DNA from: Actinomycetota bacterium
GTDB lineage: Bacteria > Actinomycetota > Acidimicrobiia > Acidimicrobiales > AC-14
DNA: 64,000 bases
NCBI GenBank assembly: GCA_040754375.1
Contig: JBFMCT010000011.1
Span: forward strand, 1,384-65,383
Direction: 5' to 3'
The translations under genes and the position numbers were made by a program. Under the pieces are notes generated by a model. The model saw only the letters and a list, made by a program, of their open reading frames with translations, had not been told where the DNA came from and did not search any database. Of this stretch, positions 22,784-39,065 are shown one piece after another (within the stretch, counting starts at the first letter, position 1; every line of letters begins with the position of its first letter).

Positions 22784-23670
22784 ACACCGTCCCCGGCCAG
22801 TACCGGAAGGTCTCGGTCGCCCGGGTCGACGTTGCCCTCACCGTGGACGGCCTCACCGGCCACTTCCTGGGACGGGAGGTGTACCGCCACACCCGGTTCG
22901 TCGTGGTGCGCGACGGCCACGGCGCGACCGCGCTGGTCGAGGTGGACAAGCCGGCCCGCGGCGACCTGTTCTCTCCGGTGACGTCGGTGACCGTGCGGGC
23001 TCTGCCCGCCGACTGCGTGTACGTGGTCGCCCCCGACGCCGACACCGGCGTCCCCAGTGCGCTGGCGGCGGTGGCCCGCGACCAGGGCAACGGCGCTCGC
23101 TGCGTAGTGGTCGAGGGCCGCTACGACCACGTGAGCTTCATCCTCGACCCCGCCCCGGTGCGGGTGCGGGTGGGCGACGTCGTGCCGCCGATGCCGGCCA
23201 AGCTGGTCGACCAGGCCCGGCGGGTCCTCGACCTGGCCGAGGACCTGGCCCCTGTGGAGCTGGTGCCCGAGGTGGTGGACATGGCCGACCTGGCCCGGGC
23301 CGGCGGTCAGGGCCGGGCCGACCACTACCTGCTGCCGTGCCGGGCCTCGGGGTTCGAGCTCGACGGCGCCCAGGTCTCGTTCCTCGACGAGCGGCCGCCC
23401 CGGGCCGACTGGACGCTCATCGGCTGTGAACGGTCCCGTTCCATCCATCAGTGGTTCTACGGCGACCTGCCCGCCGGTCCCATCGAGACCTGCCCCCGCA
23501 AGCTCTTCACCGGTCCCGGCCCCCTGCTGACCAAGTGCTGCCTGCTGGAGAACGAGAACTGCACCGACGGCGACACCGTGGTGGTGCCCTGGGGCGCCTC
23601 GCTCGACCTGGTGCGCCAGGCCGTCACCGACCTGTCTAGGACCGGGGAGCCGGCGTGGGCGCCCGCCTGA
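22780..23670 (+). CDS. uncharacterised Cys-rich protein (296 aa)
   Basis: ATG at 22780 overlaps the comA-like stop (ATGA). C-terminal third carries LLPCRASG, LIGCERSRSIH, ETCPRK, LTKCCLLENENC. No family recognised. Confidence 0.6.
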   Translation: MNTVPGQYRKVSVARVDVALTVDGLTGHFLGREVYRHTRFVVVRDGHGATALVEVDKPARGDLFSPVTSVTVRALPADCVYVVAPDADTGVPSALAAVARDQGNGARCVVVEGRYDHVSFILDPAPVRVRVGDVVPPMPAKLVDQARRVLDLAEDLAPVELVPEVVDMADLARAGGQGRADHYLLPCRASGFELDGAQVSFLDERPPRADWTLIGCERSRSIHQWFYGDLPAGPIETCPRKLFTGPGPLLTKCCLLENENCTDGDTVVVPWGASLDLVRQAVTDLSRTGEPAWAPA

Positions 23671-25004: not shown

Positions 25005-25996
25005 ACGGACCTCCCTGGGGTCGGTTGCCCCGGTTCCCCCTGGCCGCGCTCCCTACCCCCCTGGTGCGGGCCCGGCATCTGGAGGCCCGGGTCGCCCGCG
25101 GCCGGCGGGGCCCGATCGTCCTCGTCAAGCGCGACGACCTCAGCGGCTTCGCGGCCGCCGGCCACAAGGCCCGCCAGCTCGAGTACCTGGTGGGCGCGGC
25201 GCTGGCCGAGGGGTGCGACGTCCTGGTCACGGGCGGGGGGCCGAGCTCGAACTGGTGCCCGGCAGCCGCCGTGGCGGCCCGGGTGGCCGGCCTCGAATGC
25301 CAGCTGGTCTCGTTCGGCACCCGGCCCGAGCGCACCCATCCCAACCTGGCCGCCTCGCTGGCCAGCGGGGCCGAGGTCCGGTTCACGGGCGATCCCGACC
25401 GCGACAACTTGGAGGCGGCCATCGTGGCGGCCGCCGACGACCTGCGGGCTGCCGGCCGGCGCCCGTTCGCCGTGCCCCGGGGTGGTGCCAGCCCCCTCGG
25501 GGCCGTGGGCATGGTCGCGGCGGCCTACGAACTAGCCGTCCAGCTCGGCGACCTCGAGGCCACGGCCGTCGTGGTGGCCACCGGGTCGGGCGGGGCCTGC
25601 GCCGGGCTGGCCGCGGCCGGGCGCTTCCCGGTCGTCGGCGCCTCGGTCAGCCGTCCCCTCGACGAGGCCGCCGCCCAGGTCGGGCGGCTGGCCCAGGCCT
25701 CGGCGTCCCTGCTCGGCCTCCCGGCGCCCACCCCGCCGGAGCTGTTCGACGTGCGGGGGCCGGGCTTCGGCGTCGCCTCCGACGAGGGCGAGGCGGCCGC
25801 CACCGTCGCCCTCCACACCGAGGGGCTGCTGCTCGACCCGACGTACACGGCTAAGGCGTTCGCCCTCCTGCTCCGGCTGGCCGAGGCCGATGACGGCCAC
25901 CCGAGCCCGGGACCGCTGGTCTTCTGGCACACGGGCGGGCTGCTCTCGGCCGCCGACCACCTGGCGCGTACGGCCGCCGTGGGAGCCGGTGCATGA
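24995..25996 (+). CDS. PLP-dependent enzyme of the ACC deaminase / D-cysteine desulfhydrase / cysteate sulfo-lyase fold
   Basis: 333 aa. LPTPL, VKRDDLSG..AAGHKARQLEYL (Lys in the PLP position), ATGSGG, and LDPTYTAKA near the C-terminus. Confidence 0.75.
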   Translation: MGVNGPPWGRLPRFPLAALPTPLVRARHLEARVARGRRGPIVLVKRDDLSGFAAAGHKARQLEYLVGAALAEGCDVLVTGGGPSSNWCPAAAVAARVAGLECQLVSFGTRPERTHPNLAASLASGAEVRFTGDPDRDNLEAAIVAAADDLRAAGRRPFAVPRGGASPLGAVGMVAAAYELAVQLGDLEATAVVVATGSGGACAGLAAAGRFPVVGASVSRPLDEAAAQVGRLAQASASLLGLPAPTPPELFDVRGPGFGVASDEGEAAATVALHTEGLLLDPTYTAKAFALLLRLAEADDGHPSPGPLVFWHTGGLLSAADHLARTAAVGAGA

Positions 25997-27495
25997 GGAC
26001 CTTTGGCCCGGCCACGTCGGGTCCCGCCCCCGAACTGGTCGAGTCGGGTTTCGCCCTCGAGAACGCCGACGCCCCCCTTCTCCATCGTGGCCTCAACCTG
26101 GCCGACATGGCCCACGTCCTGGACCTGCGCAGCCAGCAAGTCATCCCCGACGACGCCGCCCGCCAGCTCCTCGGGCTGCTCCTCGAGGTCCACGAGATGC
26201 CGGCCGAGGAGTTCCCCTACGACCCGTCGTTCGGGGAGGCGTACAACTCCCGGGAACGGTACTTCGTCTCCCGTCTGGGCGACACGGCTGGCTGGCTGCA
26301 CGCCGGCCGGCCCCGGCGGGAGGCCACCCGGATCGCCCTGCGGCTACTGCTGCGCCGCCAGTTGGTCGAGGTGCTCGCCGACGCCGCCCGGCTGGCCGAC
26401 AGCATGGCCGATCAGGCGGCCGCCCACGTGGGCTCGGTGATGCCCGACCAGACCTACCTCCAGCAGGCCCAGCCGTCCACGTTCGGCCATTACATCCTCT
26501 CGTTCGCCTACCCGACCCTGCGCGACAGCCGGCGCCTGCTCGACGCCGTGTCCTGGGTGAACGCCAGCCCGGGCGGGGCCGGGTGTGTCAACGGCAGCCG
26601 GCTGTTGGCCGACCGGGAACTGCTGGCCGACCTGCTCGGGTTCGACGGCGTGATCGAACACACCCGCGACGCCATGTGGCAGGTCGACGGGCTCATCCAC
26701 ATCATGGGCACCACGGCCAGCATGCTCTCCAACCAGAGCAAGTTGGCCGAGGACCTGGAGATCTGGTCGAGCAGCGAGTTCGACTACGTGGACCTCGACC
26801 CTGGCTTCACCCGGGCCAGCGTGCTCATGCCCCAGAAGCGCAACCCGTACTCGCTGTCGATCGTGCGGGGTGCCCACGGCATCCTCATCGGGCGGCTGTC
26901 CGGCTTCCTGGCCGTGGTCAAGAGCCCCTCGGCCCGCAGCGACAACTTGATCTTCGCCTACGGCGAGGTCCCCCGGTCCCTCGATCTGGCCGCCCGCGTC
27001 ACCCGCCTGATGGGCGGGGTCGTCCGCACCTTGGCGGTCAACACCGACCGCATGGCCGATGCCCTGCGCGACGGGTTCACCCAGGCCACCGACCTGGCCG
27101 AACACATCGTCACGACCACCGGCATCGACTACCGCACGGCCTACCTGGTCGTGGGCCAGGCCGTGCGGGTGGCCAGCGCGGCCGGGCTGCGGGGGGTGGA
27201 CATCACGGGCGAGATGCTCGACCGGGCGGCCACGGACCTGCGGGGCCAGCCGCTGGGGCTGGCGGGCGCCGACCTCACCGACGTGCTCGACCCCCGCCAG
27301 ATCGTCGCCACCCGGTCCGCCCCGGGCGGGGCCGCGCCGTCGGCCGTCGAGGCCATGGTGGGCACGTGCCGGGCCGAGGCGGCCGAGGTCCTGGCCGAGG
27401 CCATGAGGCGCCAGGGGGACTTCGACCACGCCGAGGAGCTGCTCGTGGAACGGGCCGTGGCCGAGGCGCACGGCCGGCAGGAGGTTGCCCAGTGA
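25993..27495 (+). CDS. fumarate-lyase-superfamily enzyme, argininosuccinate lyase-like
   Basis: 500 aa. QTYLQQAQPSTFGH, and a signature loop ASVLMPQKRNPYS that deviates from GSSxMPxKxNP. ATG overlaps the previous stop (ATGA). Confidence 0.8.
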   Translation: MRTFGPATSGPAPELVESGFALENADAPLLHRGLNLADMAHVLDLRSQQVIPDDAARQLLGLLLEVHEMPAEEFPYDPSFGEAYNSRERYFVSRLGDTAGWLHAGRPRREATRIALRLLLRRQLVEVLADAARLADSMADQAAAHVGSVMPDQTYLQQAQPSTFGHYILSFAYPTLRDSRRLLDAVSWVNASPGGAGCVNGSRLLADRELLADLLGFDGVIEHTRDAMWQVDGLIHIMGTTASMLSNQSKLAEDLEIWSSSEFDYVDLDPGFTRASVLMPQKRNPYSLSIVRGAHGILIGRLSGFLAVVKSPSARSDNLIFAYGEVPRSLDLAARVTRLMGGVVRTLAVNTDRMADALRDGFTQATDLAEHIVTTTGIDYRTAYLVVGQAVRVASAAGLRGVDITGEMLDRAATDLRGQPLGLAGADLTDVLDPRQIVATRSAPGGAAPSAVEAMVGTCRAEAAEVLAEAMRRQGDFDHAEELLVERAVAEAHGRQEVAQ

Positions 27496-28895
27496 AGCTG
27501 CCCACCGACATCGAGGTTGTGAACGTCGGCCTCCCGCTGTTCGCCGACGCCGTCCGCCAGCAGGGCCGGCCGGTGGTGCAGGTCGACTGGCGCATCCCCG
27601 CGGGCGGGGACCTCGAACTGGTGGCCGCCCTGAGCCGGCTCTACGGCCGTCACGGGGCGGCCATCGACGAGGCCAATGCGGAGGTCGCCCGGCGGTTGGA
27701 CCAGGGTTCGCCCAAGTTGGTGGGCCTCGAGCGGGCACTCGACGTCCTGCCCGGTGTCGACGACCGAACGGTCATCCACTGCGGCCCGGCCATCGGCTGG
27801 ACCGACATGTGCGACCCCCTGCGCCGGTCGGTCCGGGCCGCGGTAATGGCCGAGGGGTGGGCGGCGACGCCCGCCGAGGTGGACGGGCTGATGGCGCGCC
27901 ACGGGGTACGGCTGGAGCCGGCCAACCACCACGGGGCCGTCGTGCCCATGGCCAGCGCCATCGGCCCTACCGCGCCGATGCTCGTCGTGGAGAACGAGGC
28001 CGGCGGTACCCGCGCCTTCTCGGCCCTCAACCAGGGCCCGGGTGAAGTGGCCTGGTTCGGGCGGGAGACTCCCGCGGCCGTGGACCGGCTGGTCTTCCTA
28101 CGGGAGGTGGCCGGTCCGCTGCTGGCCGAGTGCCTGCGCCACTCGGGGCCGCTCGACGTGTTCACCCTGGCGGCCCAGGGACTGCAGATGGGCGACGACC
28201 TGCACATGCGCACCCAGGCCACGACCAACCTGTTCGTGCGGGCCCTGCTGCCCCACCTGATGGGGCTCGAAGACCGGCGACGGGCCGACCTGGGCCGCTT
28301 CCTCTCCACCGACCACCTGTTCTTCCTGAACGTGGCCATGGCCGGGGCCAAGTCGCTCACCCTGTGGGCCGAACAGGTACAGGGATCGAGCGTGGTCACC
28401 ACCATGGCCCGCAACGGCACGACCTACGGGGTCCGCCTGCCAGGCTCGCAGCGTTGGTTCGTCACCGCCTCGCCGCCCATCGGCCAGGCCCTCTACTACC
28501 CCGGTTACGGTCCCGAGCACGGCGCCCCCGACATCGGCGACAGCGCCGTGCTGGAGCTGGTCGGCCTGGGCGGTTCGGCGGCCGCCGCCTCGCCCGCGGT
28601 GGCCGCCTTCGTCGGCGGCACCATGGCCGACGCCATCGCCTCGACCGAGGCCATGGACCACGTGTGCGTGGCCCGCAGCACCCGGTTCAAGCTGCCGTTG
28701 CTCGACTTCCGCGGCTCACCGGTGGCCGTCGACGTCCGCAAGGTGGTCGAACTGGGCATCACACCCAAGGTCAACACCGGCATCCTCCACGCCCACGACG
28801 GCTCCGGACAGGTCGGCGCGGGTGTGGCCGAGGCCCCCATCGCCTGCTTCCGCGAGGCGTTGCTGGACCTCGACCGCCGCCTGTCCTCGTCCTGA
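27492..28895 (+). CDS. DUF1116 (YlbE-like) protein
   Basis: GTG at 27492 overlaps the previous stop (GTGA). 467 aa resembling E. coli YlbE-type proteins that accompany FdrA. The listed ORF 25890..28895 has a 534-codon spurious extension. Confidence 0.7.
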   Translation: MKLPTDIEVVNVGLPLFADAVRQQGRPVVQVDWRIPAGGDLELVAALSRLYGRHGAAIDEANAEVARRLDQGSPKLVGLERALDVLPGVDDRTVIHCGPAIGWTDMCDPLRRSVRAAVMAEGWAATPAEVDGLMARHGVRLEPANHHGAVVPMASAIGPTAPMLVVENEAGGTRAFSALNQGPGEVAWFGRETPAAVDRLVFLREVAGPLLAECLRHSGPLDVFTLAAQGLQMGDDLHMRTQATTNLFVRALLPHLMGLEDRRRADLGRFLSTDHLFFLNVAMAGAKSLTLWAEQVQGSSVVTTMARNGTTYGVRLPGSQRWFVTASPPIGQALYYPGYGPEHGAPDIGDSAVLELVGLGGSAAAASPAVAAFVGGTMADAIASTEAMDHVCVARSTRFKLPLLDFRGSPVAVDVRKVVELGITPKVNTGILHAHDGSGQVGAGVAEAPIACFREALLDLDRRLSSS

Positions 28896-28905
28896 TGAGG
28901 CGCTA

Positions 28906-29718
28906 GTGCTCGAACTGGGCCTGGGCGCCCGAGAGGCGCTCTCGGTGCCCGGCACGGGCACCGTGATCGGGGCCTACACCAAGGCCGCCTACGTCCGGGT
29001 GCCGGGCGGGCTGTTCGCCCTCACCACACGCGACGTGGCCTCCGGTCCCCTGCACGCCCGCACCGACCTGCCCGTCGCGCGCCTCGGCGTGGGCGACCGG
29101 GTTGTGGTCACGCCGAGGCTGCTCCAGGCCGGGCCGCTCCTGTTCGACCTCCGGGCGGCCACCGTCTGGCGGGGCCGCCTCCCCCAGGTCGGCCCCCCGG
29201 GCCACGCCGGCACCGCCGGCCGCGGAGTCGACGTCCCGGGCCTGGCCCGCCGCCTGGGCGGGGCCGGTCCCGGGCTCACACCCGCGGGTGACGACGCCCT
29301 GGCCGGGGTCCTCCTCGTGGCCCGGCTCCACGGTGGTCAGCCGGCCGAGGAGGGCCTCGTGGGGATCGCGGCCGCCGTCCCCACCAACGACATCTCCCGG
29401 GCCTTCCTCGTTTGGGCGGCCCGGGGCCAGAGCACCGAGCCCGTCCACCAGTTCCTCCTGACCGGCGACCCCCACCACCTGGGCACCGTGCGGGCCATGG
29501 GGCACACCTCCGGAGCGGCCTTGGCTGACGGCCTCATGTACGCATTGCACGCTTTTGCAAGGCCCGTGCAACAGGACGTCGCAGGCTGCGGGGTACCAGC
29601 CGAACCCCGAGGAGGTCCCGCGTGGCCCGGACGATTCTCACTCTCCGCCCCACCACTGTCTGCCCGTGCTGGTTCGCCACCGCCGCCCCAGCCCACCACG
29701 ACCGGCTGGTCCGGGTGA
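28906..29718 (+). CDS. DUF2877 (YlbF-like) protein
   Basis: GTG at 28906. GPGLTPAGDDALAGVLLV motif as I recall for DUF2877. About 270 aa, like YlbF. Confidence 0.6.
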   Translation: MLELGLGAREALSVPGTGTVIGAYTKAAYVRVPGGLFALTTRDVASGPLHARTDLPVARLGVGDRVVVTPRLLQAGPLLFDLRAATVWRGRLPQVGPPGHAGTAGRGVDVPGLARRLGGAGPGLTPAGDDALAGVLLVARLHGGQPAEEGLVGIAAAVPTNDISRAFLVWAARGQSTEPVHQFLLTGDPHHLGTVRAMGHTSGAALADGLMYALHAFARPVQQDVAGCGVPAEPRGGPAWPGRFSLSAPPLSARAGSPPPPQPTTTGWSG

Positions 29719-29912
29719 CGACCGACCTGACCGCGACCCTGGACCTGGTGGAGATGGCCGTCACCTGGGCCGAGCTCGACTACAGCCACGAGGACGTCAT
29801 CCCGCCCCGGCGCTGGCTGGAGTTCGCGGCCGAGCACGAGTGGGAAGACCCCGACGTGGCCGAACGGCTCTTCAGCGCGGCCGCCGAGATCGCCCTCAGG
29901 CGGGCGGGTTGA
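29715..29912 (+). CDS. possible small acidic protein (65 aa)
   Basis: GTG at 29715 overlaps the previous stop (GTGA). ..VEMAVTWAELDYSHEDVIPPRRWLEFAAEHEWEDPDVAERLF... Its 3' end overlaps the convergent OsmC-like gene by 17 nt. Confidence 0.3.
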   Translation: MTTDLTATLDLVEMAVTWAELDYSHEDVIPPRRWLEFAAEHEWEDPDVAERLFSAAAEIALRRAG

Positions 29913-30348
29913 CGACGACCTCGACCTCGTTCAGCGTACGAAGGGTGTTGGACACGTAACACACGGCCTTGGCCCGCTCAACCAGGCGGTCCAGCTCCTC
30001 CCGCTCGTGGCTGGAGGTGACCTCGACCCGGAGATGGGAGAACTTGGGGCCGTCGTAGGCGCCCACGACCAGCACGGCCAGGTCGGCCAGCTCGATGCCG
30101 CGCTTGCGCCCGACGTGGGCCACGGCGAGGGCGAAGCACGACCCCAGCGAGGCCAGGAAGAGGTCGGTCGGCTGCGGCCCGGTGCCCTCCCCTCCGGCGT
30201 GCTCCGGCTCGTCCACCCGTACCTCGAACTCACCGGCCGTGACCCGGCAGCGGTAGCCGCCCTCCCATACGGCGTATACCGAGCGCGAGCTCGAGGGCGG
30301 ACGCTCAGCCGTGCTCGTGGCCGTGCCCGTGCTCGTGCCCACTGGCAT
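29896..30348 (-). CDS. OsmC/Ohr-family peroxiredoxin-like protein; start uncertain
   Basis: ..GGEGTGPQPTDLFLASLGSCFALAVA.. and ..AKAVCYVSNTL.. carry the two conserved Cys of the OsmC fold. The first canonical in-frame start after the upstream stop region is ATG 30348, which would overlap the His-tail coding region by 44 nt. Confidence 0.7.
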   Translation of the reverse strand: MPVGTSTGTATSTAERPPSSSRSVYAVWEGGYRCRVTAGEFEVRVDEPEHAGGEGTGPQPTDLFLASLGSCFALAVAHVGRKRGIELADLAVLVVGAYDGPKFSHLRVEVTSSHEREELDRLVERAKAVCYVSNTLRTLNEVEVVVNPPA

Positions 30349-30709
30349 GATCGTGACCGTGCCCGCCGGCATGATCGTGACCGGCCGGGCGCTCGGCCAG
30401 CTCACCGGCCCGGGCCTCCAGCTCACCGGCGCCCACGACGCCCCTGCCGGCCAACACCCGCTCCAGGGCGGTGAGCCAGCAGCGGTAGTAGCTCCAGCAC
30501 TCGTCGCCCTCGCGCTCCCAACCGCCGACGGCGGCGATGAGCTCACGACGGAAGTCCTCCCAGTCGATGGTCCCGGCGTCGTGGAGGGCCATGGCCAGCC
30601 CGAACGCCCGGCTCTCCCACGGGGCCGCGAAGACCAGCTCGCCGTTGCTCCGGGGGGGCGCCCCCGGCCCCTCGATGTCCAGCACCGCGCCCGGCGACGG
30701 GACAGTCAT
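30305..30709 (-). CDS. nitrile hydratase accessory (activator) protein with C-terminal His-rich tail
   Basis: ATG at 30709 overlaps the alpha stop (ATGA). 134 aa. [18 protein letters not shown].. resembles the beta-subunit-like NHase activators. Tail is [24 protein letters not shown]. Confidence 0.75.
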
Positions 30710-31305
30710 GGAGCCGCCACCTTGGCCACCCCGACCATGGCGTCGCGCGTCACCAGCGAGGCCAGGTCTTCCTCGCTCATCCCCTCGGTGCCCGCCGGCC
30801 GTTCGGGCAGCACCATGTAGCGCACCTCCGAACTGCTGTCCCATACCCGCAGCTCGATGTCGTCGCCCAACTCCAGCCCCATCTCGGCCAGCAGGGCCCG
30901 GGGGTCGCGCACCATCCGCGACCGGTAGGCGGGGTCCTTGTACCAGCCCGGGGGCAGGCCCAGCACCGGCCACGGGTAACAGGAGCACAGCGTGCAGACG
31001 ACGACGTTGTGCACCGACGGCGTGTTCTCCAGTACGACGATGTGCTCGCCCTGGGGGCCCTTGAAGCCCAGTTCGGCGATCGAACCCGTGCCGTCCTCCA
31101 GCAGGCGGGCCTTGTAGTCAGGGTCGGCCCAGGCGTGGGCCACGACCTTGGCGCCGTTCATGGGGCCGACGTCCTGCTCGTACATCTTGATGAACTTGTC
31201 CATGAGGGAGGGGTCGACGATCCCCCGCTCCACCAGGATCGATTCGAGAGCCTCCGTCCGCAGCTCGATGGGCAGGCGTTCGGCGGTGGTGTCCGACGTG
31301 GTCAC
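30706..31305 (-). CDS. nthA: nitrile hydratase alpha subunit, cobalt type
   Basis: GTG at 31305 overlaps the beta stop (GTGA). Metal-site motif [14 protein letters not shown] (Thr/Tyr variant = Co type; the Fe type is CSLCSCT). Confidence 0.9.
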
Positions 31306-31967
31306 GGCGCGGCCTCCAGATAGGACTCGTACAGGTCGAACCTCAGGGTGAACTTCTCGGCGTCCTCGCCCCACAGCTCAGTCGAGCCGAACTCGACGTT
31401 GTAGACGTGCTGGGGGTTCTCCCCCAGGAAGTGGGCGTTGGTGTCGGGCAGCACCTGGGCGGGCAGGACGAGGCGCACGACACCCGCCCGCCCGCGCACG
31501 TAGCGGGCCAGCCGGGTGTGGCCCGTCGGGTGGATGTCGCGCGCCCGCACCCGGTCCCCCACCGCGAACTTGGGCGGGTCGTCGATCTGGCGGATCGACC
31601 CGGCCGCCGTGGGCTGGTAGTCGGGCTTGTCGGGCTCGGGGACGGGCGGCTCCTCCACGTCCTCGCCCCGCAGCTTGCGGGCCCGGGCGTCGACCGCCCC
31701 GGGGGCGATGATCGACGATCCCACCAGCAGGTTCTCGGTCATCTTGAGCCAGCGGCCGTAGTAGCCGTAGGCCAGGTAGTCGATGGGGTGCTGGCGGTTC
31801 AGGCCGTGGCGGAACGTGTCGAGGTTGGTGCCCGAGATCCGCATCGACAGCAGCGCCATGGCGAACGCCCGCTTCTCCCACTCCTCATGGAAAGGCGGGT
31901 CGTCGGGCGGGTCGAGGCTGACGCGGCCGAAACCCTGCAGCCCGCCCATGTCGGCGACGGTGTCCAA
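31302..31967 (-). CDS. nthB: nitrile hydratase beta subunit
   Basis: 221 aa. MGGLQGFG..., [11 protein letters not shown], ..YYGRWL.., ..[12 protein letters not shown]... Gene order beta-alpha-accessory. Confidence 0.9.
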
Positions 31968-32051
31968 CGTCGCACCTCCTTCAAACGAAAGGGAGAGACG
32001 CCCCCCGACCGTGGCGGCCGGGGGGCGCTCCCGGTGATCGGCGACGAGTGG

Positions 32052-32540
32052 TCAGACGGTCCAGGTGTTGATCTGGAACGCCCCGGCCCGCCAGGCGGTC
32101 AGCGCCGAGTCGAGCACGTCCAGCGGGTGGAAGGCCTTCACGCCATCGATGAGGTCGTCCTCCCGGAAGCCGTAGAGCGCGCCCATGGCGAAGCGGCAGG
32201 CGTAGACGTTCGCTCCCTCCTTGAGGAGGGTCTTGATCTGGTTGTTGATGGCCATGTGCCCGGGGAAGGCCTCCTGGCCGACAGCCGGGAAGCCCCGGGT
32301 GCCTGACGCCAGCAGGACGCCCGGCCCGTAGAGGATGATGTTGACCTCGAACCCCTTGCGCACCAGCCGGGTCGAGGTCAGCAGGTTCACCAGCGCGACC
32401 GAACCCTCGTAGGGGACGGTGTGTATGAAGACGAAGGCCCGCTCGCCGGGGTTGGCCTTGATGTCTTCGAACAGCTTCTCGTCCGTGTCGAAAAGGACCT
32501 CGCCGTCGGCGGGGCGTTCCTGGTTGACTGTCTTCGGCAT
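32052..32540 (-). CDS. DsrE-like ~160-aa protein (MSMEG_0572/Sll0783-like by size and context)
   Basis: 162 aa. ATG directly abuts the upstream stop (TAGATG) with RBS gaggagag. The pattern AFVFIHTVPYEG...VNIILYGPGV...ANVYACRFAMGA suggests a DsrE/DsrF-type fold. Confidence 0.6.
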   Translation of the reverse strand: MPKTVNQERPADGEVLFDTDEKLFEDIKANPGERAFVFIHTVPYEGSVALVNLLTSTRLVRKGFEVNIILYGPGVLLASGTRGFPAVGQEAFPGHMAINNQIKTLLKEGANVYACRFAMGALYGFREDDLIDGVKAFHPLDVLDSALTAWRAGAFQINTWTV

Positions 32541-32855
32541 CTACTCTCCTCGTGTCTCGGTAAGGGTCTGCGGTGGGGTGGTGACTCGGCCGTCGGCGCT
32601 GACGGCCGGGGTTCCTCGTAGCGGGGGATGCGCCCAGTTCTGACGATGGCTGCCCGGCATCGCCCGGATCGTGAAGTGCCGCAGTCCCCAGGGCAGCCGG
32701 CGGTAGACGGGCGCGAAGACCTGTAGCCAGAACTTCTCCCGCACGCCCTTGGGCCGGGGCGGGCCGGCCCGCCCGTACTTGTCGGCCATCCGCCGTTGGG
32801 CGTCGACGAGCAGGTAGTGCTCGGAGTTCTGGCGGAGCCAGTGGGCGAAGGCCAC
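32541..32855 (-). CDS. small conserved-looking protein (104 aa; MSMEG_0570-like by size and position)
   Basis: GTG at 32855, 2 nt after the oxidoreductase stop. ..HWLRQNSEHYLLVDAQRRMADKYG...KFWLQVFAPVYRRLPWGLRHFTIRAMPGSHRQNW... The rest of ORF 32541..33899 is antisense shadow. Confidence 0.5.
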   Translation of the reverse strand: MAFAHWLRQNSEHYLLVDAQRRMADKYGRAGPPRPKGVREKFWLQVFAPVYRRLPWGLRHFTIRAMPGSHRQNWAHPPLRGTPAVSADGRVTTPPQTLTETRGE

Positions 32856-32857
32856 CG

Positions 32858-34195
32858 CTACCTGCCCAGCGAGGCCAGGCCGTTCTGGGCGGCCAGCGCG
32901 ATGGGCTCGTTGAGAGCCCCGATGGGTGGGGAGTAGACGTTCTCCATGGTGGCGAGGTCGTCGAGGGTGATCCCCGTACGGACGGCCATGGCCAGGAAGT
33001 CGGCCCGCTCCTTGATGCCCTCGCCCCCGACGAGCTGGGCGCCGATGAGGCGGAGCGTCCCCGGCTCGGCCAGCAGCTTGACTTTGATCTTCTTCATGTC
33101 CGGGTAGTAGCGGGCCCGGGAGATGCCCTGGGCCACGCCCATGACGAACGGGATCCCCAGGGCCGTAGCCAGCGTCTCGCCGAACGACACGCCACCGATC
33201 ATCCACTTGCCGGCCACCATCCCCCAGGGGACGTACACGGGCTGGTACGCCCGCTTGCCCCCGGCCGCGTTGGTGCCCGCCACCTTGCCCTGGGCGTAGG
33301 CGTGGCTGCCGGACAGGCCCTGGATGGGGACGTCGCTCACGCCGTGGGGCAGCTCGACACAATCGCCGGCCGCGTACACGTCGGGCGCCGAGGTGGTCAT
33401 GCGCTCGTCCACGATGATCCCGCCGGTGGAACCGACCTTGATGCCCGCTCCCGCCGCCATGCGGGCATTGGGCTGCTTCTTGGTGCACACGACGACCACG
33501 TCGGCCGGCAGTTCCCCGGCGTCGGTGCGCACCGCCCGCACGTGCCCTTGTCCGTCGCCCACGAACTCGCGCAGGGCCGTGTTCCAGTGCATCTTCACGC
33601 CCATCTCCGCCCAGGACTCCTCCACCGGAGCGGCGATGTCGGGGTCGGCGGCCTCGGCCAGGGCCCAGGGGTGAGGGTCGATCACGTGGGTCTCGATGCC
33701 GCGGTGGGCCAGGGCCGTGACCATCTCCAAGCCGAGGGGCGACGCCTCCACCACCACCGCCACCTTGACGGTGTCGAGCACCTTGTCCCACTCCATGGCG
33801 CTGCGGATGTTCTTTACGTAGTAGAGGCCCCCCAGCTCGGTGCCGGGGACACCCGGGTCGGCGTAGTCGAAGCCGGTACCGAGGATCAGCCGGTCCCATT
33901 GCTGGGTGCCCTCACCCTCGATGGTGACGGTCCGGGCGTCGACGTCGAACGACGAGACACGCGTCTCATAGTGGATGTCGATGCCCGCCTCCTGGTAGGA
34001 CTGCTTGGTGGCCAGGAACAGCCGGTCGAAGTCGGGGATCTCCTTGCCGTGGACATAGGGGATGCCGCACGGGCTGTACGCGGCGTCCTCGTACTCGGTG
34101 TACACCACGACTTCGGCGCTACGGTCCGTCTGCTTGGCGGCGCCCGCGGCACCGATCCCCGCTGCCCCACCACCGATCACGACGATCCTGGCCAC
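32858..34195 (-). CDS. FAD-dependent pyridine nucleotide-disulfide oxidoreductase (CoA-disulfide reductase / NADH oxidase-like, single active Cys)
   Basis: GTG at 34195 preceded by aggagacgggggg. 445 aa. IVVIGGGAAGIGAA, YSPCGIPY, VAVVVEASPLGLE, AAGDC, and a C-terminal dimerisation domain. Confidence 0.85.
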   Translation of the reverse strand: MARIVVIGGGAAGIGAAGAAKQTDRSAEVVVYTEYEDAAYSPCGIPYVHGKEIPDFDRLFLATKQSYQEAGIDIHYETRVSSFDVDARTVTIEGEGTQQWDRLILGTGFDYADPGVPGTELGGLYYVKNIRSAMEWDKVLDTVKVAVVVEASPLGLEMVTALAHRGIETHVIDPHPWALAEAADPDIAAPVEESWAEMGVKMHWNTALREFVGDGQGHVRAVRTDAGELPADVVVVCTKKQPNARMAAGAGIKVGSTGGIIVDERMTTSAPDVYAAGDCVELPHGVSDVPIQGLSGSHAYAQGKVAGTNAAGGKRAYQPVYVPWGMVAGKWMIGGVSFGETLATALGIPFVMGVAQGISRARYYPDMKKIKVKLLAEPGTLRLIGAQLVGGEGIKERADFLAMAVRTGITLDDLATMENVYSPPIGALNEPIALAAQNGLASLGR

Positions 34196-34280
34196 CTGCC
34201 CCCCGTCTCCTACCGCATGGACGATCCGGCTCTGACGTTTACTATACTGGACGTCGTTGGTAATGGCGTCAAGGAGGCCT

Positions 34281-34925
34281 ATGACTGATCTCGGCGATCC
34301 GGCGCCCCGTACCGACGGGCGGGCGGGTGTGGACGGCATCGTGAGCGGCATCGGGTTGCGCCTGCGGGAGTTGCGCCTCCACCACAGCCTCTCGCTCCAG
34401 CAGTTGGCCGAACGGGCGGGCGTGTCGGCCGCCGCCATCCACAAGATCGAGCGCAACGGCATGGTCCCCACGATCACCACGCTGCTGAAGCTGGCCGACG
34501 CGTTCGACCGCCCGGTGGCCTACTTCCTCGACGACGAGAAGGCCGAGGCCGGGCCGGTGGCGTTCATCCCGGCCGACGAGCGGCCGACCGTGTTCAACTC
34601 CCGCCCGGGCGTCGAGGTCCGCGCCATCTCCGGCTCGTACCCGAAGTTCTTCCTGGCCTCGACGGTGGTCACCGTCCAGCCCGGTGCCGGCAGCGGCCCG
34701 TCACGCGCCGTCGACCAGCGGGAGGAGCTCGTACTGGTGCTCGAGGGCACTCTCCGCTTCGAGGTCGACGGCCGGGAGTACCTGCTCGAGCCAGGGGACG
34801 CCCTGCACCTGCGGACCGACGGCCCGCATCGTTGGGTGAACCCGGGAGACGGCCCGGCCCAGGCGGCCTGGACCACCCTCAAGCCGTTCGACGGCTGCCC
34901 GTTCGGATCGGGGGCGGTGAGGTAG
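34281..34925 (+). CDS. XRE-family HTH + cupin-domain transcriptional regulator
   Basis: ATG at 34281 with a perfect aaggagg RBS (the track start 34257 is an upstream TTG). HTH LSLQQLAERAGVSAAAIHKIERNG. C-terminal cupin (..ELVLVLEGTLRFEVDG..L.PGDALH). Confidence 0.8.
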   Translation: MTDLGDPAPRTDGRAGVDGIVSGIGLRLRELRLHHSLSLQQLAERAGVSAAAIHKIERNGMVPTITTLLKLADAFDRPVAYFLDDEKAEAGPVAFIPADERPTVFNSRPGVEVRAISGSYPKFFLASTVVTVQPGAGSGPSRAVDQREELVLVLEGTLRFEVDGREYLLEPGDALHLRTDGPHRWVNPGDGPAQAAWTTLKPFDGCPFGSGAVR

Positions 34926-34928
34926 GCC

Positions 34929-35897
34929 ATGGCGCTGACGACCGTGCCGGTCGCCCCGTGGATCGAGGGGTTCCAGCCCTTCGACCACACCTCGGTGCGG
35001 CGTACCGAAGTCGTGCGTCCCGCCATGTGCGGGCACAACTCGTTGCTGGTCGGCCAGATCGGCGACTGGACCTGGGACGCCGTCGCCCAGGTGTGCGGCA
35101 CCGACGTACTGCGGGCCGCCAGCCGCACCGGCGAGCCCGCCTACCTGTCGTTCTATTACTACCGGGTGCGTAGCAGCCCGTCGTTCCACCTGCGGACGCC
35201 GACGTTCGGCGACCGCCTGCACGTGACCTCGCAGCTCTTCGACTTCGGCAGCGAGTCCGTGCTGACCCTGCACCGCATCAGCCTCCTGGCCGGCGTAGGT
35301 GGCTTCGGGCCCGACGAGTTCTACTCGGGCACCGACAAGGACTGCCTCTATGTCGAGAACCTCAACCGGTGGATCTCCCGGCCCGACGACGGGTCCAACC
35401 GCCGTCTGGTCCCGGCCTCGCCGCCGGACTTCCGCCACCACCACCTGCCCCCGCTGCCCGAGGCCTACTCGCCCCGCCACGCCTGCCACCGCGCTCGCAC
35501 CCGGCTGACGTTCCTCGACGGCGACGATCTCGACCGGCTGGAGCCCGCTGGCCCGCCCGTGGAGCTCGAGTACCGCGTCGACCCCAGCCGGGACCTCAAT
35601 GGCGTGGGCCTGCTGTACTTCGCGGCCTACTTCTCGATCGTCGACTGGGGCCTGCTCCAGCTCTGGCGGGGCCTGGGCCGCAATAGCCGCTCGTTCCTCG
35701 AACGAGTGGTGGTGGACCAGCAACTCTGCTATCTCGGGAACGCTGATGCCGACAGTGCTGTGAGGGTGAGCGTCCAGCGGCGGGAAGCGGTGACCGGTGA
35801 CCGCGGCCACGAGGTCGTCGACGTGGTGCTACGAGACCGTGCCGACGGGCGGCTACTGGCCGTTTGCACCCTGCGGCTACTGGCGAACCCTCGCTAA
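34929..35897 (+). CDS. double hot-dog-fold protein (acyl-ACP thioesterase / LnmK-like)
   Basis: 322 aa, two similar halves, with ..NGVGLLYFAAYFSIVD.. reminiscent of acyl-ACP thioesterase-type hot-dog proteins. Family assignment is by eye only. Confidence 0.45.
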   Translation: MALTTVPVAPWIEGFQPFDHTSVRRTEVVRPAMCGHNSLLVGQIGDWTWDAVAQVCGTDVLRAASRTGEPAYLSFYYYRVRSSPSFHLRTPTFGDRLHVTSQLFDFGSESVLTLHRISLLAGVGGFGPDEFYSGTDKDCLYVENLNRWISRPDDGSNRRLVPASPPDFRHHHLPPLPEAYSPRHACHRARTRLTFLDGDDLDRLEPAGPPVELEYRVDPSRDLNGVGLLYFAAYFSIVDWGLLQLWRGLGRNSRSFLERVVVDQQLCYLGNADADSAVRVSVQRREAVTGDRGHEVVDVVLRDRADGRLLAVCTLRLLANPR

Positions 35898-38800
35898 CCG
35901 GCCCCGGGCCACGAAGCCGTCCCGCAACTCGGCGGGGAGCAGGGCGGCGAGGCGGTCGAACGCCTCCCGGGCCTGGCCGGGAGGTGCCACCTCGGCCAGC
36001 AGCAGGTCCGAGCCGGTGGAAGCGGCCACGGCCGCGGCCTCCTCGCACCGGCCGAGGTGGTGCAAGGCCAGCGCCTCGTACTTGCGGGAGCGGCGCTGGC
36101 GGGCCGTGTCGAGGAGGCCGTCGGCTTCGTCGGCGGCCAAGCGGCAACGCAGCTCCCGGTAGCGGAGCTCGGCCCGCCAGTGGAACGGGAGCCAGTTGGA
36201 CAACAGCGGCCCCGCCTCCTCTACCAGTTGCCCGGCTGTGCCGTCGTCGCCCGCCAGCAGCGCGCATTCCGCCCGGGCCAGGATCCCGTGCAGCTCCTGC
36301 TCGATCTGAAGGCTCCCGGCGCCAACGTCGCGGGCCTCGTCGACCGCCCGCTCGGCCAGGTCACGGGCCCGGCCCTGCTGGCCGACCTCCCGCCACACCC
36401 ACGACAACAATGTGTCGGTGCGGGCGCGGTAGAAGTGGACGTCGTACTCCTCCAGCAGGCGCCGCTTGCGGTCGAGCGCCCGCAGGGCACCGCCGAAGTC
36501 GCCGAGGTTGGCCCGGGCCAGGGCGGCAAAGAACAGGGCACGCAGCAGCGGTCGGAAGGAGCCGCTGCGCGTCGACTCGGCCGCCGCCTGGTCGAGGGTG
36601 CGACGGGCCTCGGCGAAGCGGTCACCGTGCTCCAGCAAGGCGCCCAGGCAGCTCAACGCCGACGCCGTGGTAGGCGCGTCGGGCTCTCGCGACAGGGCCT
36701 CTTCGTAGGCTGAGGCGGCGCCGTCGATGTCGCCTGCCCAGTGCCGGATGCGCCCCACCAGGACCAGCGCGCTGGGCAGCGCGGCGGGAGCGGCGGCTGC
36801 CGACTCGGCCAGCTCGGCGGCCCGGGCCGCCAGTTCGGAGGCGACCGCCGGGTCCCGGCCGTAGTACGCCGTCCAGCCCAGGCGCTCGAGGGCCTGGGCC
36901 TCGATGCCCTCGTCCCCGATGCCGCGGGCGATCGCCAGCGCCGCCATGTGGTCCTCGTTGGCTCCTGCGTAGTCGGCCAGCTCTTCGCGCATCTGCCCGC
37001 GACGGATGAGCGCCCGGGCTCGGGCCCCGTCGTCGCCCGCCTGCCCGGCCGCGGCGATGGCCTCGGTGAGGAGGCGCTCGGCGTCTCGGAGAGCGAACGA
37101 CCGGACCGCCCGCTCCGCGGCCCCCGACCACGCGGCGTGGGCCTGGGCCCAGTCGCCGGCCGCGCCATGGTGGACGGCGGCCATCTCCGGTTTGCCCGCC
37201 AGCTTGGCCGCGGCCCTGCGGTGGCGGCTGGCCCGGATGGGTGCCGGCGTGCTGTCGTAGAGAACGTCGCGGATGATGCTGCCGGCGAAGAGGAAGCGGC
37301 TGCCGTCGGTGGTCAGCAGCCCGGCCTGTAGGGCGTGCCCCGCCCGCTGGGCCGCTTCCTCGGTGGCCAGGCCCATGAGCTCGGCCACGAAGTCCAGCTC
37401 GAAACCACCGCCGACGATCGCCGCTCCCCGCAGGAGCTCCTCGACGTCCTTGCCGGCCCGGGCCACCCGATCGAGCACCGCCGTCCGCAGCGACGGCGGC
37501 TGGCGTCCCCCCTGATCGGCCGCGGCCAGGCGCAGGGCCTCGACGACGAACTGGGCGTGACCACCGGTGCGCTCGTGCAGTTCGAGCGAGTCGACCGAGG
37601 TGGCGCCCAGGCGCTGGCGGAGCTGTTCGACGGCTGCGGGGGACAACTCCTCGAGCGCCAGGACCTCGGCGGCGTGGCCCGCAAGGGGCAGGATGCCGTC
37701 CATCTCGTCGGAGGCGACGGTGCCCACGATCAGGATCGCCCTGGTTTCGAGGCGCCCGGCGAGGAGGAAGGCCGCTTCGACGGTCGAGCGCCCGGCGTGG
37801 TGCAGATCGTCCAACACGATGAGCACGGGCTGCTCCCGGGACAGCCCCTCGAGCACGCTCGTCACCGCGCTCAGGGAATGCCGGCGCTCGATCTCGGGGG
37901 TCGAGCGCTCGTAGGGCGACTCACCGAGCAGGGGCCGGAGCTGGGGCATCAGCTCGGCCAGGGTGCCGGCCCACCGCCCGGCCAGGCGCTGGACCTTCTG
38001 GGGCTCGAGCGACGAGAGGCAGCCGGCCAGAGCTTCGAGTAGTGGCTGGAGGAACAGCGAACGTTCGGCCTCGTAACACGTCGCCCACATCACGAGCGCG
38101 CCCGTGGCCCGGGCCTCCGACGCCAGTTCGGAGGCGAGCCGGGTCTTGCCCGACCCGACCGAACCCGAGACGAGCTGGACGCCGGCCCGGCCCCGCACGG
38201 CCGCCGACCAGCGCTCGAGGAGAGCGGCCAGCTCGGCCTCCCGACCGACCAAAGACGATGAGGCGCCCGAGCCCGCATGGTTTCGGTCGAGGGCCGTCGG
38301 ATCGGCGGCCGGGACCGGTTCCGAACGGACGATGGCGAGGTAGAGCCTCTCGGTCTCGGCACCCGGGCCCGCGCCCAGTTCGGTCGCCAGCGTCTCCCGC
38401 AACTCCCGGTAGGCGGTGAGGGCGGCCGCGGCGTCGCCGGCCAGGTAGAACGCCTGCATACAGGCCCGGTGGGCTTCCTCGTCCACGGGATCGGCTTCGA
38501 TGGCCGCGGTGGCGGCGTCGAGGGCGGCGATCGGCTCGCCCAGCCCCAGCGCGGCCGCCCACGCCGCGTGGCGGGCCCGGCGCACGAGCCTCTCGGCCTG
38601 GCGGCGGGCGGGCTCGGCCCATGGCGCATAGGGCTCGTCGACCAGGAACGTCCCCCGCTCGAGCAGGTGGCGGGCCTGCACGGCCGCCGCTGCGGCCAGC
38701 GCCACCCGCCCGTCGCGGAGCTGGTTCTCGGCCTCGGCCACCAGCTGCTGGGCCTCGTCTTCGTCCACCCAGCAACCGGCCAGCTCCCACCGGTAACCAC

Positions 38801-39065
38801 CCCGCCCACCGCTGATCCGTTCCGCCCCCACCACCCGCCGCAGCCGGCTGACCAGGGACGCGACGTTCTGCGCCGTACCCGGCGGGGCCCGGTCCCCCCA
38901 CAGCGCGTCCACGATCGCATCGGTCGGCACGTATGCCCCGCGCCGGACCACCAGCAGCCGGGCCAGCGAGGTCGCCTTCCCTCCGGGCAAAGCCAACGGC
39001 CCGCCGGGCACGCCGAAGACCTCGAACCGCCCCATCAGTCGGACCCGGAGCTCAACCTCCGGCAT
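35877..39065 (-). CDS. SARP/AfsR-family regulator: OmpR-type winged helix + BTAD + P-loop NTPase + TPR
   Basis: 1062 aa. N-terminal LRVRLMGRFEV..., BTAD (..EEAHRACMQAFYLAGDAAAALTAYRELRETLATELG..PG.ETERLY), Walker A SGSVGSGKTRL, Walker B VLIVLDDLHH, and a long TPR-like C-terminus. Confidence 0.85.
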   Translation of the reverse strand: MPEVELRVRLMGRFEVFGVPGGPLALPGGKATSLARLLVVRRGAYVPTDAIVDALWGDRAPPGTAQNVASLVSRLRRVVGAERISGGRGGYRWELAGCWVDEDEAQQLVAEAENQLRDGRVALAAAAAVQARHLLERGTFLVDEPYAPWAEPARRQAERLVRRARHAAWAAALGLGEPIAALDAATAAIEADPVDEEAHRACMQAFYLAGDAAAALTAYRELRETLATELGAGPGAETERLYLAIVRSEPVPAADPTALDRNHAGSGASSSLVGREAELAALLERWSAAVRGRAGVQLVSGSVGSGKTRLASELASEARATGALVMWATCYEAERSLFLQPLLEALAGCLSSLEPQKVQRLAGRWAGTLAELMPQLRPLLGESPYERSTPEIERRHSLSAVTSVLEGLSREQPVLIVLDDLHHAGRSTVEAAFLLAGRLETRAILIVGTVASDEMDGILPLAGHAAEVLALEELSPAAVEQLRQRLGATSVDSLELHERTGGHAQFVVEALRLAAADQGGRQPPSLRTAVLDRVARAGKDVEELLRGAAIVGGGFELDFVAELMGLATEEAAQRAGHALQAGLLTTDGSRFLFAGSIIRDVLYDSTPAPIRASRHRRAAAKLAGKPEMAAVHHGAAGDWAQAHAAWSGAAERAVRSFALRDAERLLTEAIAAAGQAGDDGARARALIRRGQMREELADYAGANEDHMAALAIARGIGDEGIEAQALERLGWTAYYGRDPAVASELAARAAELAESAAAAPAALPSALVLVGRIRHWAGDIDGAASAYEEALSREPDAPTTASALSCLGALLEHGDRFAEARRTLDQAAAESTRSGSFRPLLRALFFAALARANLGDFGGALRALDRKRRLLEEYDVHFYRARTDTLLSWVWREVGQQGRARDLAERAVDEARDVGAGSLQIEQELHGILARAECALLAGDDGTAGQLVEEAGPLLSNWLPFHWRAELRYRELRCRLAADEADGLLDTARQRRSRKYEALALHHLGRCEEAAAVAASTGSDLLLAEVAPPGQAREAFDRLAALLPAELRDGFVARGRLARVRQ

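Follow-up and report, generated by a model that had tools for sequence, protein, structure and literature searches.

Nit1C gene clusters, defined by Podar et al. in 2005 (PMC1199592), keep a nitrilase beside a gene of the MSMEG_0572/Sll0783 family (hereafter 0572). A locus in which a cobalt-type (Co) nitrile hydratase (NHase) stands in that place raises the question of whether one nitrile-hydrolysing enzyme has replaced another, and what else has changed along with it. Here, we analyse such a locus in a 64-kb stretch of DNA (GC content 72%), called the window below, from an Acidimicrobiia genome (assembly GCA_040754375.1, contig JBFMCT010000011.1, positions 1,384 to 65,383). Emphasis is on a minus-strand row of genes for a flavoprotein, a 104-residue protein (p104), a DsrE-like protein of the 0572 family, the beta and alpha subunits of an NHase (nthB and nthA), an NHase accessory protein or activator, and an OsmC/Ohr-family protein. 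Comparative evidence gives good support to the idea that a Co-NHase has taken the place of the nitrilase, as a non-orthologous replacement, in a Nit1C-type system, and further members of the system appear to have been exchanged as well.

The coding frames of the row are unambiguous, with GC at third codon positions between 0.86 and 0.97 in all frames from the flavoprotein gene to the OsmC gene, and independent gene calls on metagenome contigs carrying an identical 162-aa protein return the same genes. The gene order and junctions described in the original prediction proved exact to the base: the flavoprotein and p104 genes are 2 nt (CG) apart, p104 and 0572 meet in TAGATG, a gap of 84 nt (32051..31968) precedes nthB, and nthB leads into nthA through a GTGA overlap and nthA into the accessory gene through an ATGA overlap. 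The 162-aa protein reaches 206.9 bits against TIGR04044 (cut-off 109.85), which places it in the MSMEG_0572/Sll0783 family. It shares 52% of its residues with the Nit1C member from Klebsiella and 62% with the one from Methylocystis, and the Cys in its YACRFA motif is invariant in canonical and variant members alike.

The three NHase genes, in the order beta-alpha-activator, each pass the cut-off of an NCBIfam equivalog model. The beta subunit, with NHase_beta_N and NHase_beta_C domains, scores 189 bits on TIGR03888 (nitrile_beta; cut-off 152), the alpha subunit 304 bits on TIGR01323 (nitrile_alph; 250), and the NHase_beta_N-like accessory protein 68.8 bits on TIGR03889 (nitrile_acc; 46). The alpha subunit contains VCTLCSC, which we take to be the cobalt-type motif, and its closest solved relatives are Co-type NHases; within this family, the predicted enzyme is unexceptional. 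Identification as a thiocyanate hydrolase was considered and rejected, as the gamma model TIGR03887 gave 194 bits against a cut-off of 291 and the beta protein is a single 221-aa subunit, not split in two.

That the nitrilase slot is empty, as had been proposed, agrees with tblastn searches using Nit6803-family queries from Klebsiella and Methylocystis (E<=1e-3), which found no nitrilase in the window and none in a set of 87 related loci. In the canonical Nit1C clusters on plasmids of Klebsiella, Acinetobacter, Agrobacterium and Aquabacterium, the 0572 gene is followed by a Nit6803-family nitrilase in four of four cases, and then by genes for a radical SAM protein, a GNAT protein, an AIR-synthase-like protein, in some cases a glycosyltransferase, and the MSMEG_0570 and MSMEG_0569 proteins (0570 and 0569). 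The Co-NHase of the window directly follows the 0572 gene, where these four clusters put the nitrilase, so the positional part of the original prediction also holds.

To place the locus in context, a scan with one genome per species returned a close 0572 relative in 414 species. The best 80 of these 414 were taken with 10-kb flanks, and seven further contexts from a second clade were picked by hand (loci are cited below by our L numbers). The best 80 are mainly from Acidimicrobiia and other Actinomycetota (Nonomuraea, Streptosporangium, Asanoa, Streptomyces chiangmaiensis), but also take in Dormibacterota and metagenome-assembled genomes labelled Chloroflexota, Bacillota and Burkholderiales. 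The unit made of an XRE-cupin regulator gene and the flavoprotein-p104-0572 trio is essentially invariant among the loci: in the 54 with full flanks, the flavoprotein is always present, and the regulator is present and divergent in 53. Within 10 kb on either side of the anchor, these 54 loci contain an NHase in 46 cases, in agreement with the expected co-conservation of NHase and trio, an OsmC gene in 43, at least one AllF/G/H or carbamate kinase gene in 44, and at least two of the coenzyme M (CoM) biosynthesis genes (xcb) in 38. Among all 80, the NHase lies downstream of 0572 on the same strand in 40, downstream and convergent in 20, upstream in 2, and is absent from 12; the remaining 6 are on contigs too short to place it. 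OsmC accompanies the NHase in most loci and occurs in NHase-less loci as well.

The census also reveals that the hydrolase is subject to exchange. Of the full-flank loci, 46 have only the NHase, 7 have only a 287-aa Amidohydro_2 protein, none has both, one has neither, and none has a nitrilase; for NHase and Amidohydro_2, Fisher's test gives p = 4.5e-8, uncorrected for phylogeny. All NHase-less actinobacterial and Dormibacterota loci have the Amidohydro_2 protein and no NHase locus has one. Its gene, usually directly upstream of the radical SAM gene (L070:13989-14852, with homologues in L055, L058, L059, L060, L065, L071, L076 and L079), encodes a product that matches no NCBIfam family. The single locus with neither enzyme within 10 kb is that of Sphingobium LB126 (L094). 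Further, a Methylocystis iwaonis plasmid (NZ_CP143315.1, 180.6-200.4 kb) has the same supercluster without an NHase; there, the radical SAM, GNAT and AIR-synthase-like genes are preceded by a gene for a Nit6803-family nitrilase. Because this plasmid combines the variant flavoprotein and p104 with a nitrilase, the flavoprotein/small-protein swap is independent of the nitrilase/NHase swap. Judged by these patterns, the nitrile-hydrolysing enzyme is a swappable module of the system.

Additional support comes from the second, more distant clade, in which the 0572 protein is 78-100% identical to that of Methylocystis and about 60% identical to that of the window. An orthologous NHase is present in six of the seven contexts, with nthA 63-72% identical. 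In L097-L099, nthB, nthA, the activator, OsmC, the flavoprotein, an 87-residue protein (p87) and 0572 form a unidirectional series behind an XRE-cupin regulator; L095 has the order XcbC-nthB-nthA-activator-flavoprotein-p104-0572; in L096, nthB, nthA and the activator are followed by an AmiS/UreI-type amide/urea channel gene (L096:1557-2084), situated between the NHase and the radical SAM and GNAT genes; and in L100, nthB-nthA-activator is fused to xcb genes, and CbtB/CbtA cobalt transporter genes (L100:7196-8220) stand directly upstream of the CoA-disulfide reductase (CoADR)-like flavoprotein gene. The channel and the transporter would fit an active cobalt NHase that makes a small amide. Altogether, the NHase occurs in at least five arrangements among the related loci, and its pairwise distances follow those of the flavoprotein (Mantel r 0.70 for nthA and 0.73 for nthB) as strongly as 0572 distances do (0.72), which fits long co-inheritance, with shared species phylogeny adding to all three values.

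The other two members of the trio were examined in the same way, as the original prediction had equated the trio with 0569, 0570 and 0572 of Mycobacterium smegmatis and had held the nitrilase to be the only member missing. The flavoprotein has the Pfam domains Pyr_redox_2, Pyr_redox and Pyr_redox_dim. All 59 of its NCBIfam matches are under their cut-offs, with CoADR and NADH oxidase models on top: TIGR03385 (CoA-disulfide reductase) gives 247 bits against a cut-off of 579 and NF007123 241 against 458, and TIGR04046 (MSMEG_0569) is absent from the best 25 of the 59. Its single redox Cys, Cys43 in YSPCGIPY, aligns with the redox Cys of solved relatives, the best being PDB entries 6pfz, 6ruz, 3cgb, 3kd9 and 8a56, and by these features the protein is placed in the CoA-disulfide reductase / NADH oxidase / persulfide reductase structural class. 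As a control, the corresponding proteins of the Klebsiella plasmid reached 118 bits (0570; TIGR04042) and 637 bits (0569; TIGR04046), which shows that the lack of a match is a property of the window proteins and not of the models. With the same Klebsiella 0570 and 0569 proteins as queries, tblastn gave no match, either in the window or among the related loci. Membership of the flavoprotein in the MSMEG_0569 (COG2072/FMO-like) family is thus ruled out. We also observed that the next-best NCBIfam matches of the Klebsiella MSMEG_0569 protein itself (L088:13420-14685) are the ArsO flavin monooxygenase and YpdA, a putative bacillithiol disulfide reductase, and a thiol-reductase role is therefore conceivable for both flavoprotein types.

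The p104 protein is likewise ruled out as a member of the MSMEG_0570 family, since it has no NCBIfam match while the control does, is not hit by the 0570 query, and yields a probability of 5.7% when a profile of 64 p104 homologues is compared with five 0570 proteins in hhalign. It is a basic protein (isoelectric point 11.5) with a conserved core of about 85 aa and a variable tail, features the motifs WLRxNSEHYLL, FxPxYRxLPW and MPGSHRxxW, and matches no Pfam or NCBIfam model. The family comprises 173 matching protein clusters, all labelled 'hypothetical', and its position between the flavoprotein and 0572 genes is constant, including in Methylocystis (47% identity). An AlphaFold2 model has three helices at a pLDDT of 66 (low confidence), and a Foldseek comparison with the PDB returned nothing at E<=0.001.

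Of the proposed equation of the trio with 0569-0570-0572, the 0572 part is therefore confirmed by TIGR04044, and the parts concerning 0569 and 0570 had to be given up. The likeness to the M. smegmatis order 0569-0570-[0571]-0572 lies in size, position and general type, and is one of analogy, not orthology, because the flavoprotein and p104 are outside the 0569 and 0570 families. The claim of a non-orthologous replacement of the nitrilase gains from the census, from Methylocystis and from the exclusivity of Amidohydro_2; the accompanying statement that the nitrilase alone is missing fails with the absence of the other two families. On balance, we hold it to be probable that three parts have been replaced relative to Nit1C: the FMO/YpdA-like 0569 by a CoADR-like flavoprotein, 0570 by the basic p104, and the nitrilase, as a swappable module, by a Co-NHase with its activator.

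In addition to this row, the window includes the remaining parts of a Nit1C-like gene set (Table 1). The 0565, 0568, 0567 and AIR-synthase-like genes sit 10-17 kb from the NHase and flavoprotein row, and the AIR-synthase-like protein is 37% identical to the Klebsiella Nit1C member. Between them and the row are homologues of ComA/XcbB, XcbA, XcbD, XcbE and XcbC in one block. The XcbA homologue passes its model (NF052538, 337 bits against 150), and the others each have the expected model as top match at a score under the cut-off (XcbD 587 of 600 bits, XcbC 434 of 575, ComA 249 of 280, XcbE 235 of 450). No alkene monooxygenase or epoxyalkane:CoM transferase gene was seen near the block. A further set consists of AllF, AllG and AllH homologues and a carbamate kinase, split between two places in the cluster and without allantoin context. 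Housekeeping genes (leuA/B/C, ilvE, gltX, proS) flank the cluster and bound it at about 15.3-35.9 kb. Taken jointly with the whole of our best explanation, it seems fairly likely that the row is one end of a conserved supercluster of about 20 kb (window positions of about 15295-35897) which represents a coenzyme-M-linked variant of the Nit1C cluster, the latter also known as the gpr cluster.

Table 1 Features of the supercluster in the window, with NCBIfam or Pfam support (cut-offs in brackets).
Feature	Position	Strand	Remarks
MSMEG_0565-family glycosyltransferase	15295-16467	minus	TIGR04047, 371 bits (260)
AllF/FdrA homologue	16464-18011	minus	NF004760 (FdrA), 400 bits
Carbamate kinase	18008-18988	minus	NF009007, 302 bits (266)
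Small conserved open reading frame, 117 aa	19065-19418	plus	Upstream of radical SAM gene
MSMEG_0568-family radical SAM protein	19422-20516	plus	TIGR04043, 388 bits (304)
MSMEG_0567/Sll0786 GNAT protein	20513-20992	plus	TIGR04045, 110 bits (68)
sll0787-type AIR-synthase-like (PurM-fold) protein	20976-21950	minus	TIGR04049 top match, 257 bits, under cut-off (321)
Coenzyme M block: ComA/XcbB, XcbA, XcbD, XcbE, XcbC homologues	21998-27495	plus	Co-directional
AllG (DUF1116) and AllH homologues	27492..29718	plus	Pfam AllG/AllH on identical genes of metagenome contigs
OsmC/Ohr-family gene	about 30348..29896, start uncertain	minus	PF02566, 69.6 bits
NHase accessory/activator protein, 134 aa	30709..30305	minus	His-rich C-terminal tail
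nthA, NHase alpha subunit, 199 aa	31305..30706	minus	
nthB, NHase beta subunit, 221 aa	31967..31302	minus	TTG start, ribosome-binding site GAAGGAGG upstream
GC-rich hairpin, 14-bp uninterrupted stem, then TCTCTCCCTTTCGTTTG	31993..32035	minus	Inside the 84-nt gap
MSMEG_0572/Sll0783-family DsrE-like protein, 162 aa	32540..32052	minus	
p104, 104 aa	32855..32541	minus	GTG start
FAD/NAD(P)H flavoprotein, 445 aa	34195..32858	minus	GTG start, TAG stop
XRE-HTH + cupin regulator	34263..34925	plus	HTH_3 + Cupin_2; divergent from flavoprotein gene
LnmK-family acyltransferase/decarboxylase	34929..35897	plus	TIGR04098, 282 bits

Some smaller features of the supercluster are less widely kept. The open reading frame at 19065-19418 matches no Pfam or NCBIfam family; it is kept in 24 loci, in all of which the radical SAM gene lies downstream of it. 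Many relatives have a version of about 190-220 aa, and the copy in the window may therefore lack a C-terminal part. It was rejected both as the missing 0570 (hhalign probability 0.1%) and as a nitrilase remnant (no nitrilase similarity). At the other end, the start codon of the LnmK-family gene is 4 nt past the stop of the XRE-cupin regulator gene. The LnmK-family protein reaches 66 bits on TIGR04099, under the cut-off, and is distant kin of the Pnap_2097 family, which is annotated in the Nit1C-type clusters of Methylocystis and Agrobacterium; the gene itself is restricted to the closest relatives of the window. At 29622-29912 (plus strand), a 96-aa open reading frame shares positions with the 3' end of the AllH gene and 17 nt with the OsmC gene, which is convergent to it. 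This frame is kept in seven close loci and matches no named family, and a counterpart of about 111-126 aa follows XcbC in the distant loci L097-L099. A large SARP/BTAD + AAA_16 regulator gene (35877-39065, minus strand) adjoins the cluster and is kept only in about nine close Acidimicrobiia loci.

Several observations weigh against the replacement of a nitrilase by an NHase within a coenzyme-M-linked cluster. The Methylocystis nitrilase adjoins the radical SAM gene and not 0572, which makes 'slot' a loose term, and the Amidohydro_2 protein of seven loci is not known to act on nitriles, so that a substrate shared by the three enzymes need not be a nitrile. No amidase was found among the 21 scanned window genes outside the supercluster or among the conserved extra gene families of the 80 loci, and without a conserved amidase the NHase does not reproduce the ammonia release of a nitrilase unless the amide goes to a further enzyme. 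The NCBIfam cut-offs are missed by several xcb homologues and by the AIR-synthase-like protein, and the block might yield either CoM or a sulfonate thiol related to it. The counts themselves rest on the best 80 of 414 species and seven hand-picked contexts, which are not phylogenetically independent, and the loci were viewed only within 10 kb of the anchor, so that a nitrilase could be encoded elsewhere in a genome.

Part of this is accommodated by an explanation in which the hydrolase position is real but not specific for nitriles. NHase, Amidohydro_2 and nitrilase would then serve lineage-specific substrates or side reactions, such as the detoxification of a by-product of the radical SAM or PurM-like protein or the scavenging of different nitrogen compounds, and the NHase would not be the equivalent of the nitrilase. 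The Amidohydro_2 alternative in 7 of the 54 loci points this way, as do the NHase unaccompanied by an amidase, the amide or urea channel that adjoins the NHase in L096, and the AllF/G/H and carbamate kinase homologues found in both NHase and nitrilase versions. However, nitriles are the only common substrates of two of the three alternatives, the strict exclusivity (no locus of 54 with both) suggests one role, and the enzyme adjoins 0572 or the radical SAM gene in canonical and variant clusters alike, and we consider this explanation unlikely.

Whether the NHase genes belong to the same system as their neighbours depends further on how the 84-nt gap is read. The gap has a minimum free energy of -49.9 kcal/mol (z = -3.64), a value reached by none of 200 shuffles, and a terminator scan flags the hairpin within it, with no strong U-tract. 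Among 88 loci, a stem of at least 8 bp lies within 100 nt past the 0572 stop in 55 and one of at least 10 bp in 40, compared with a shuffle mean of 6.6 bp, and the stem sequences differ among lineages. No known RNA element such as a riboswitch or leader was matched in the gap (Rfam, E<=1), and no sigma-70 promoter was found upstream of nthB in 29500-35000, a scan that is uninformative for an actinobacterial-type genome of 72% GC. The hairpin appears to be a terminator-like or RNA-stabilising 3' structure that ends the flavoprotein-p104-0572 unit, and, to judge by such hairpins and the convergent NHase in 20 loci, 0572 seems usually to be the last gene of a transcription unit. The nthB-nthA-activator(-OsmC) genes, with their own ribosome-binding site, would probably form a separate unit or one dependent on read-through. 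Given the hairpin and the 20 convergent loci out of 80, co-transcription is not required and is doubtful here, and the idea of a single operon across the trio and nthBA is not supported. The original prediction had named a terminator between the two groups, together with a lack of co-conservation, as what would speak against it; a terminator-like hairpin was indeed found, and co-conservation is strong.

The same hairpin and ribosome-binding site, together with the loci in which the NHase is convergent (20) or absent (12), are also what would be expected if the NHase operon were an independent nitrile-catabolic unit that happens to stand beside an unrelated sulfur/redox operon, its adjacency being meaningless. 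This is improbable, as the adjacency is kept in Actinomycetota, Dormibacterota, Chloroflexota-labelled and Pseudomonadota-like genomes and in at least five arrangements that include same-direction operons, the NHase is exclusive with Amidohydro_2 and its distances co-vary with those of the core, and cobalt transporter genes are embedded in the core of L100. The idea that the trio and OsmC are maturation or repair factors of the NHase (acting on oxidised Cys ligands or in cobalt delivery) and not pathway partners draws on the requirement of NHase for Cys-sulfinate and Cys-sulfenate ligands and on the adjacent OsmC and thiol-type flavoprotein, but is most improbable, since the trio occurs without an NHase in the Amidohydro_2-type loci and in Methylocystis, and the 0572 family accompanies nitrilases in canonical Nit1C.

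Returning to our preferred reading, in which a Co-NHase has taken over from the nitrilase in a coenzyme-M-linked variant of the cluster, a mechanism can be inferred that goes beyond the observed gene content, family membership, arrangement, co-conservation and mutual exclusivity. The NHase would hydrate the same nitrile as the nitrilase of the canonical and Methylocystis-type clusters, and its product would be the amide instead of acid and ammonia. The amide might be passed to another enzyme of the cluster or exported, because no amidase is conserved nearby and one locus has an AmiS/UreI channel. What the CoADR-like flavoprotein probably maintains in the reduced state is either a persulfide on the Cys of 0572 or a low-molecular-weight thiol, which is probably the CoM that the xcb genes would supply. 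More speculatively, the flavoprotein may reduce CoM disulfide or a CoM/0572 persulfide, a role suggested because xcb genes accompany the CoADR-like type and are unseen beside the four canonical clusters. The PurM-fold protein, the carbamate kinase and AllF/G/H could, again speculatively, interconvert carbamoyl and cyano groups; HypE/HypF provide an analogy for such carbamoyl-to-cyano chemistry.

In general terms, the constant partners, namely 0572 with its invariant Cys, the flavoprotein resembling CoADR and persulfide reductases, OsmC and the CoM pathway, point to thiol/persulfide redox chemistry. A more specific version, which we put forward only tentatively, is that 0572, the CoADR-like reductase and CoM form a thiol/persulfide pathway that makes or consumes a nitrile or cyanide-derived compound, with three non-homologous hydrolases being interchangeable. 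The reported phenotypes of canonical clusters agree with a thiol/redox reading: MSMEG_0565-0572 makes cells resistant to peroxide in a GlnR-dependent manner and increases the NADPH/NADP ratio (PMC6039565), and a Synechocystis sll0783 mutant has been linked to NADPH-dependent polyhydroxybutyrate accumulation (PMC3901256). For the Nit6803-family nitrilase, the best in vitro substrates are cinnamonitrile and fumaronitrile, cyanide is a poor one, and no natural substrate is convincing (PMC7815647).

How the window cluster relates to described systems can be stated gene by gene. Compared with the seven Nit1C genes, the window passes the models for ORF1 (0572/Sll0783; TIGR04044) and for ORF3 and ORF4 (0568 radical SAM and 0567 GNAT), has a best match under the cut-off for ORF5 (sll0787 AIR-synthase-like), lacks ORF2 (the subfamily-1 Nit6803/sll0784 nitrilase), and has proteins outside the families of ORF6 (0570) and ORF7 (0569). 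With three of the seven genes absent and one borderline, the window cluster is not Nit1C by the Podar definition, and yet it would operate in a similar manner and is evidently of the same stock. With Nit1C, which includes nitBCDEFGH of Pseudomonas oleovorans CECT5344 and gpr (MSMEG_0565-0572), it has in common 0572, 0568, 0567, the AIR-synthase-like protein and 0565, as well as a protein of about 100 aa, a flavoprotein of about 440 aa, and a nitrile-hydrolysing enzyme beside 0572. It differs in that its genes are spread over about 20 kb on both strands, in the addition of xcbA-E, AllF/G/H, carbamate kinase and OsmC, and in having an XRE-cupin regulator where Nit1C has sigma-54 or MocR-type regulators. 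The Methylocystis iwaonis plasmid is closer, sharing the CoADR-like flavoprotein, a p104 homologue, 0572, DUF1116/AllG, the 0565 glycosyltransferase, an FdrA-like protein, the XRE-cupin regulator, the AIR-synthase-like, GNAT and radical SAM genes, and xcb genes. Its nitrilase gene precedes the radical SAM gene, an NHase is absent, and no other example of the variant with a nitrilase was seen.

Among Co-type NHase operons, of which nhlBAE of Rhodococcus rhodochrous J1 is presumably a comparable case, that of Pseudonocardia thermophila JCM 3095 (PDB 1IRE) has the same beta-alpha-activator order, the VCTLCSC motif, and an activator homologous to the N-terminal half of the beta subunit. In contrast to such operons, the window NHase lies in a Nit1C-type/CoM cluster and not beside an amidase or aldoxime dehydratase, and its activator has a long His-rich tail. 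The bacterial CoM pathway xcbA-E is described for Xanthobacter autotrophicus Py2 (PMC9457059). The window has a homologue of each of the five enzymes, arranged as one co-directional block, with four of five under the cut-offs and, unlike Py2, with no alkene monooxygenase or epoxyalkane:CoM transferase genes seen. In Escherichia coli, allFGH encodes oxamic transcarbamylase and allK carbamate kinase (PMC11326118, PMC9843812), and FdrA/AllF, DUF1116/AllG, AllH and carbamate kinase are all present in the window, in two separate places and outside any allantoin context. Full-text searches, with subscription journals largely outside their reach, found no description of an NHase in a Nit1C-type cluster, of a link between Nit1C and CoM biosynthesis, or of the p104 family.

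Nit1C has been known since 2005, and a widespread sister cluster in which the hydrolase, the flavoprotein and the small protein have been swapped amounts to a natural experiment. The constant 0572, radical SAM, GNAT, PurM-like protein and glycosyltransferase define the core chemistry, and the varying parts indicate two steps, one in which a nitrile (or amide) is hydrolysed and one of thiol-reductase type. The dataset also delineates a clade of Co-NHases that is new and has a genomic context of its own. A further prediction is that CoM is produced by cultivable strains of Nonomuraea, Asanoa and Streptosporangium for which no CoM-dependent metabolism is known. If true, the thiol/persulfide pathway would reveal what Nit1C/gpr clusters do, and would give CoM a second bacterial role, beyond alkene and epoxide metabolism, in hundreds of soil Actinomycetota, Dormibacterota and Proteobacteria.

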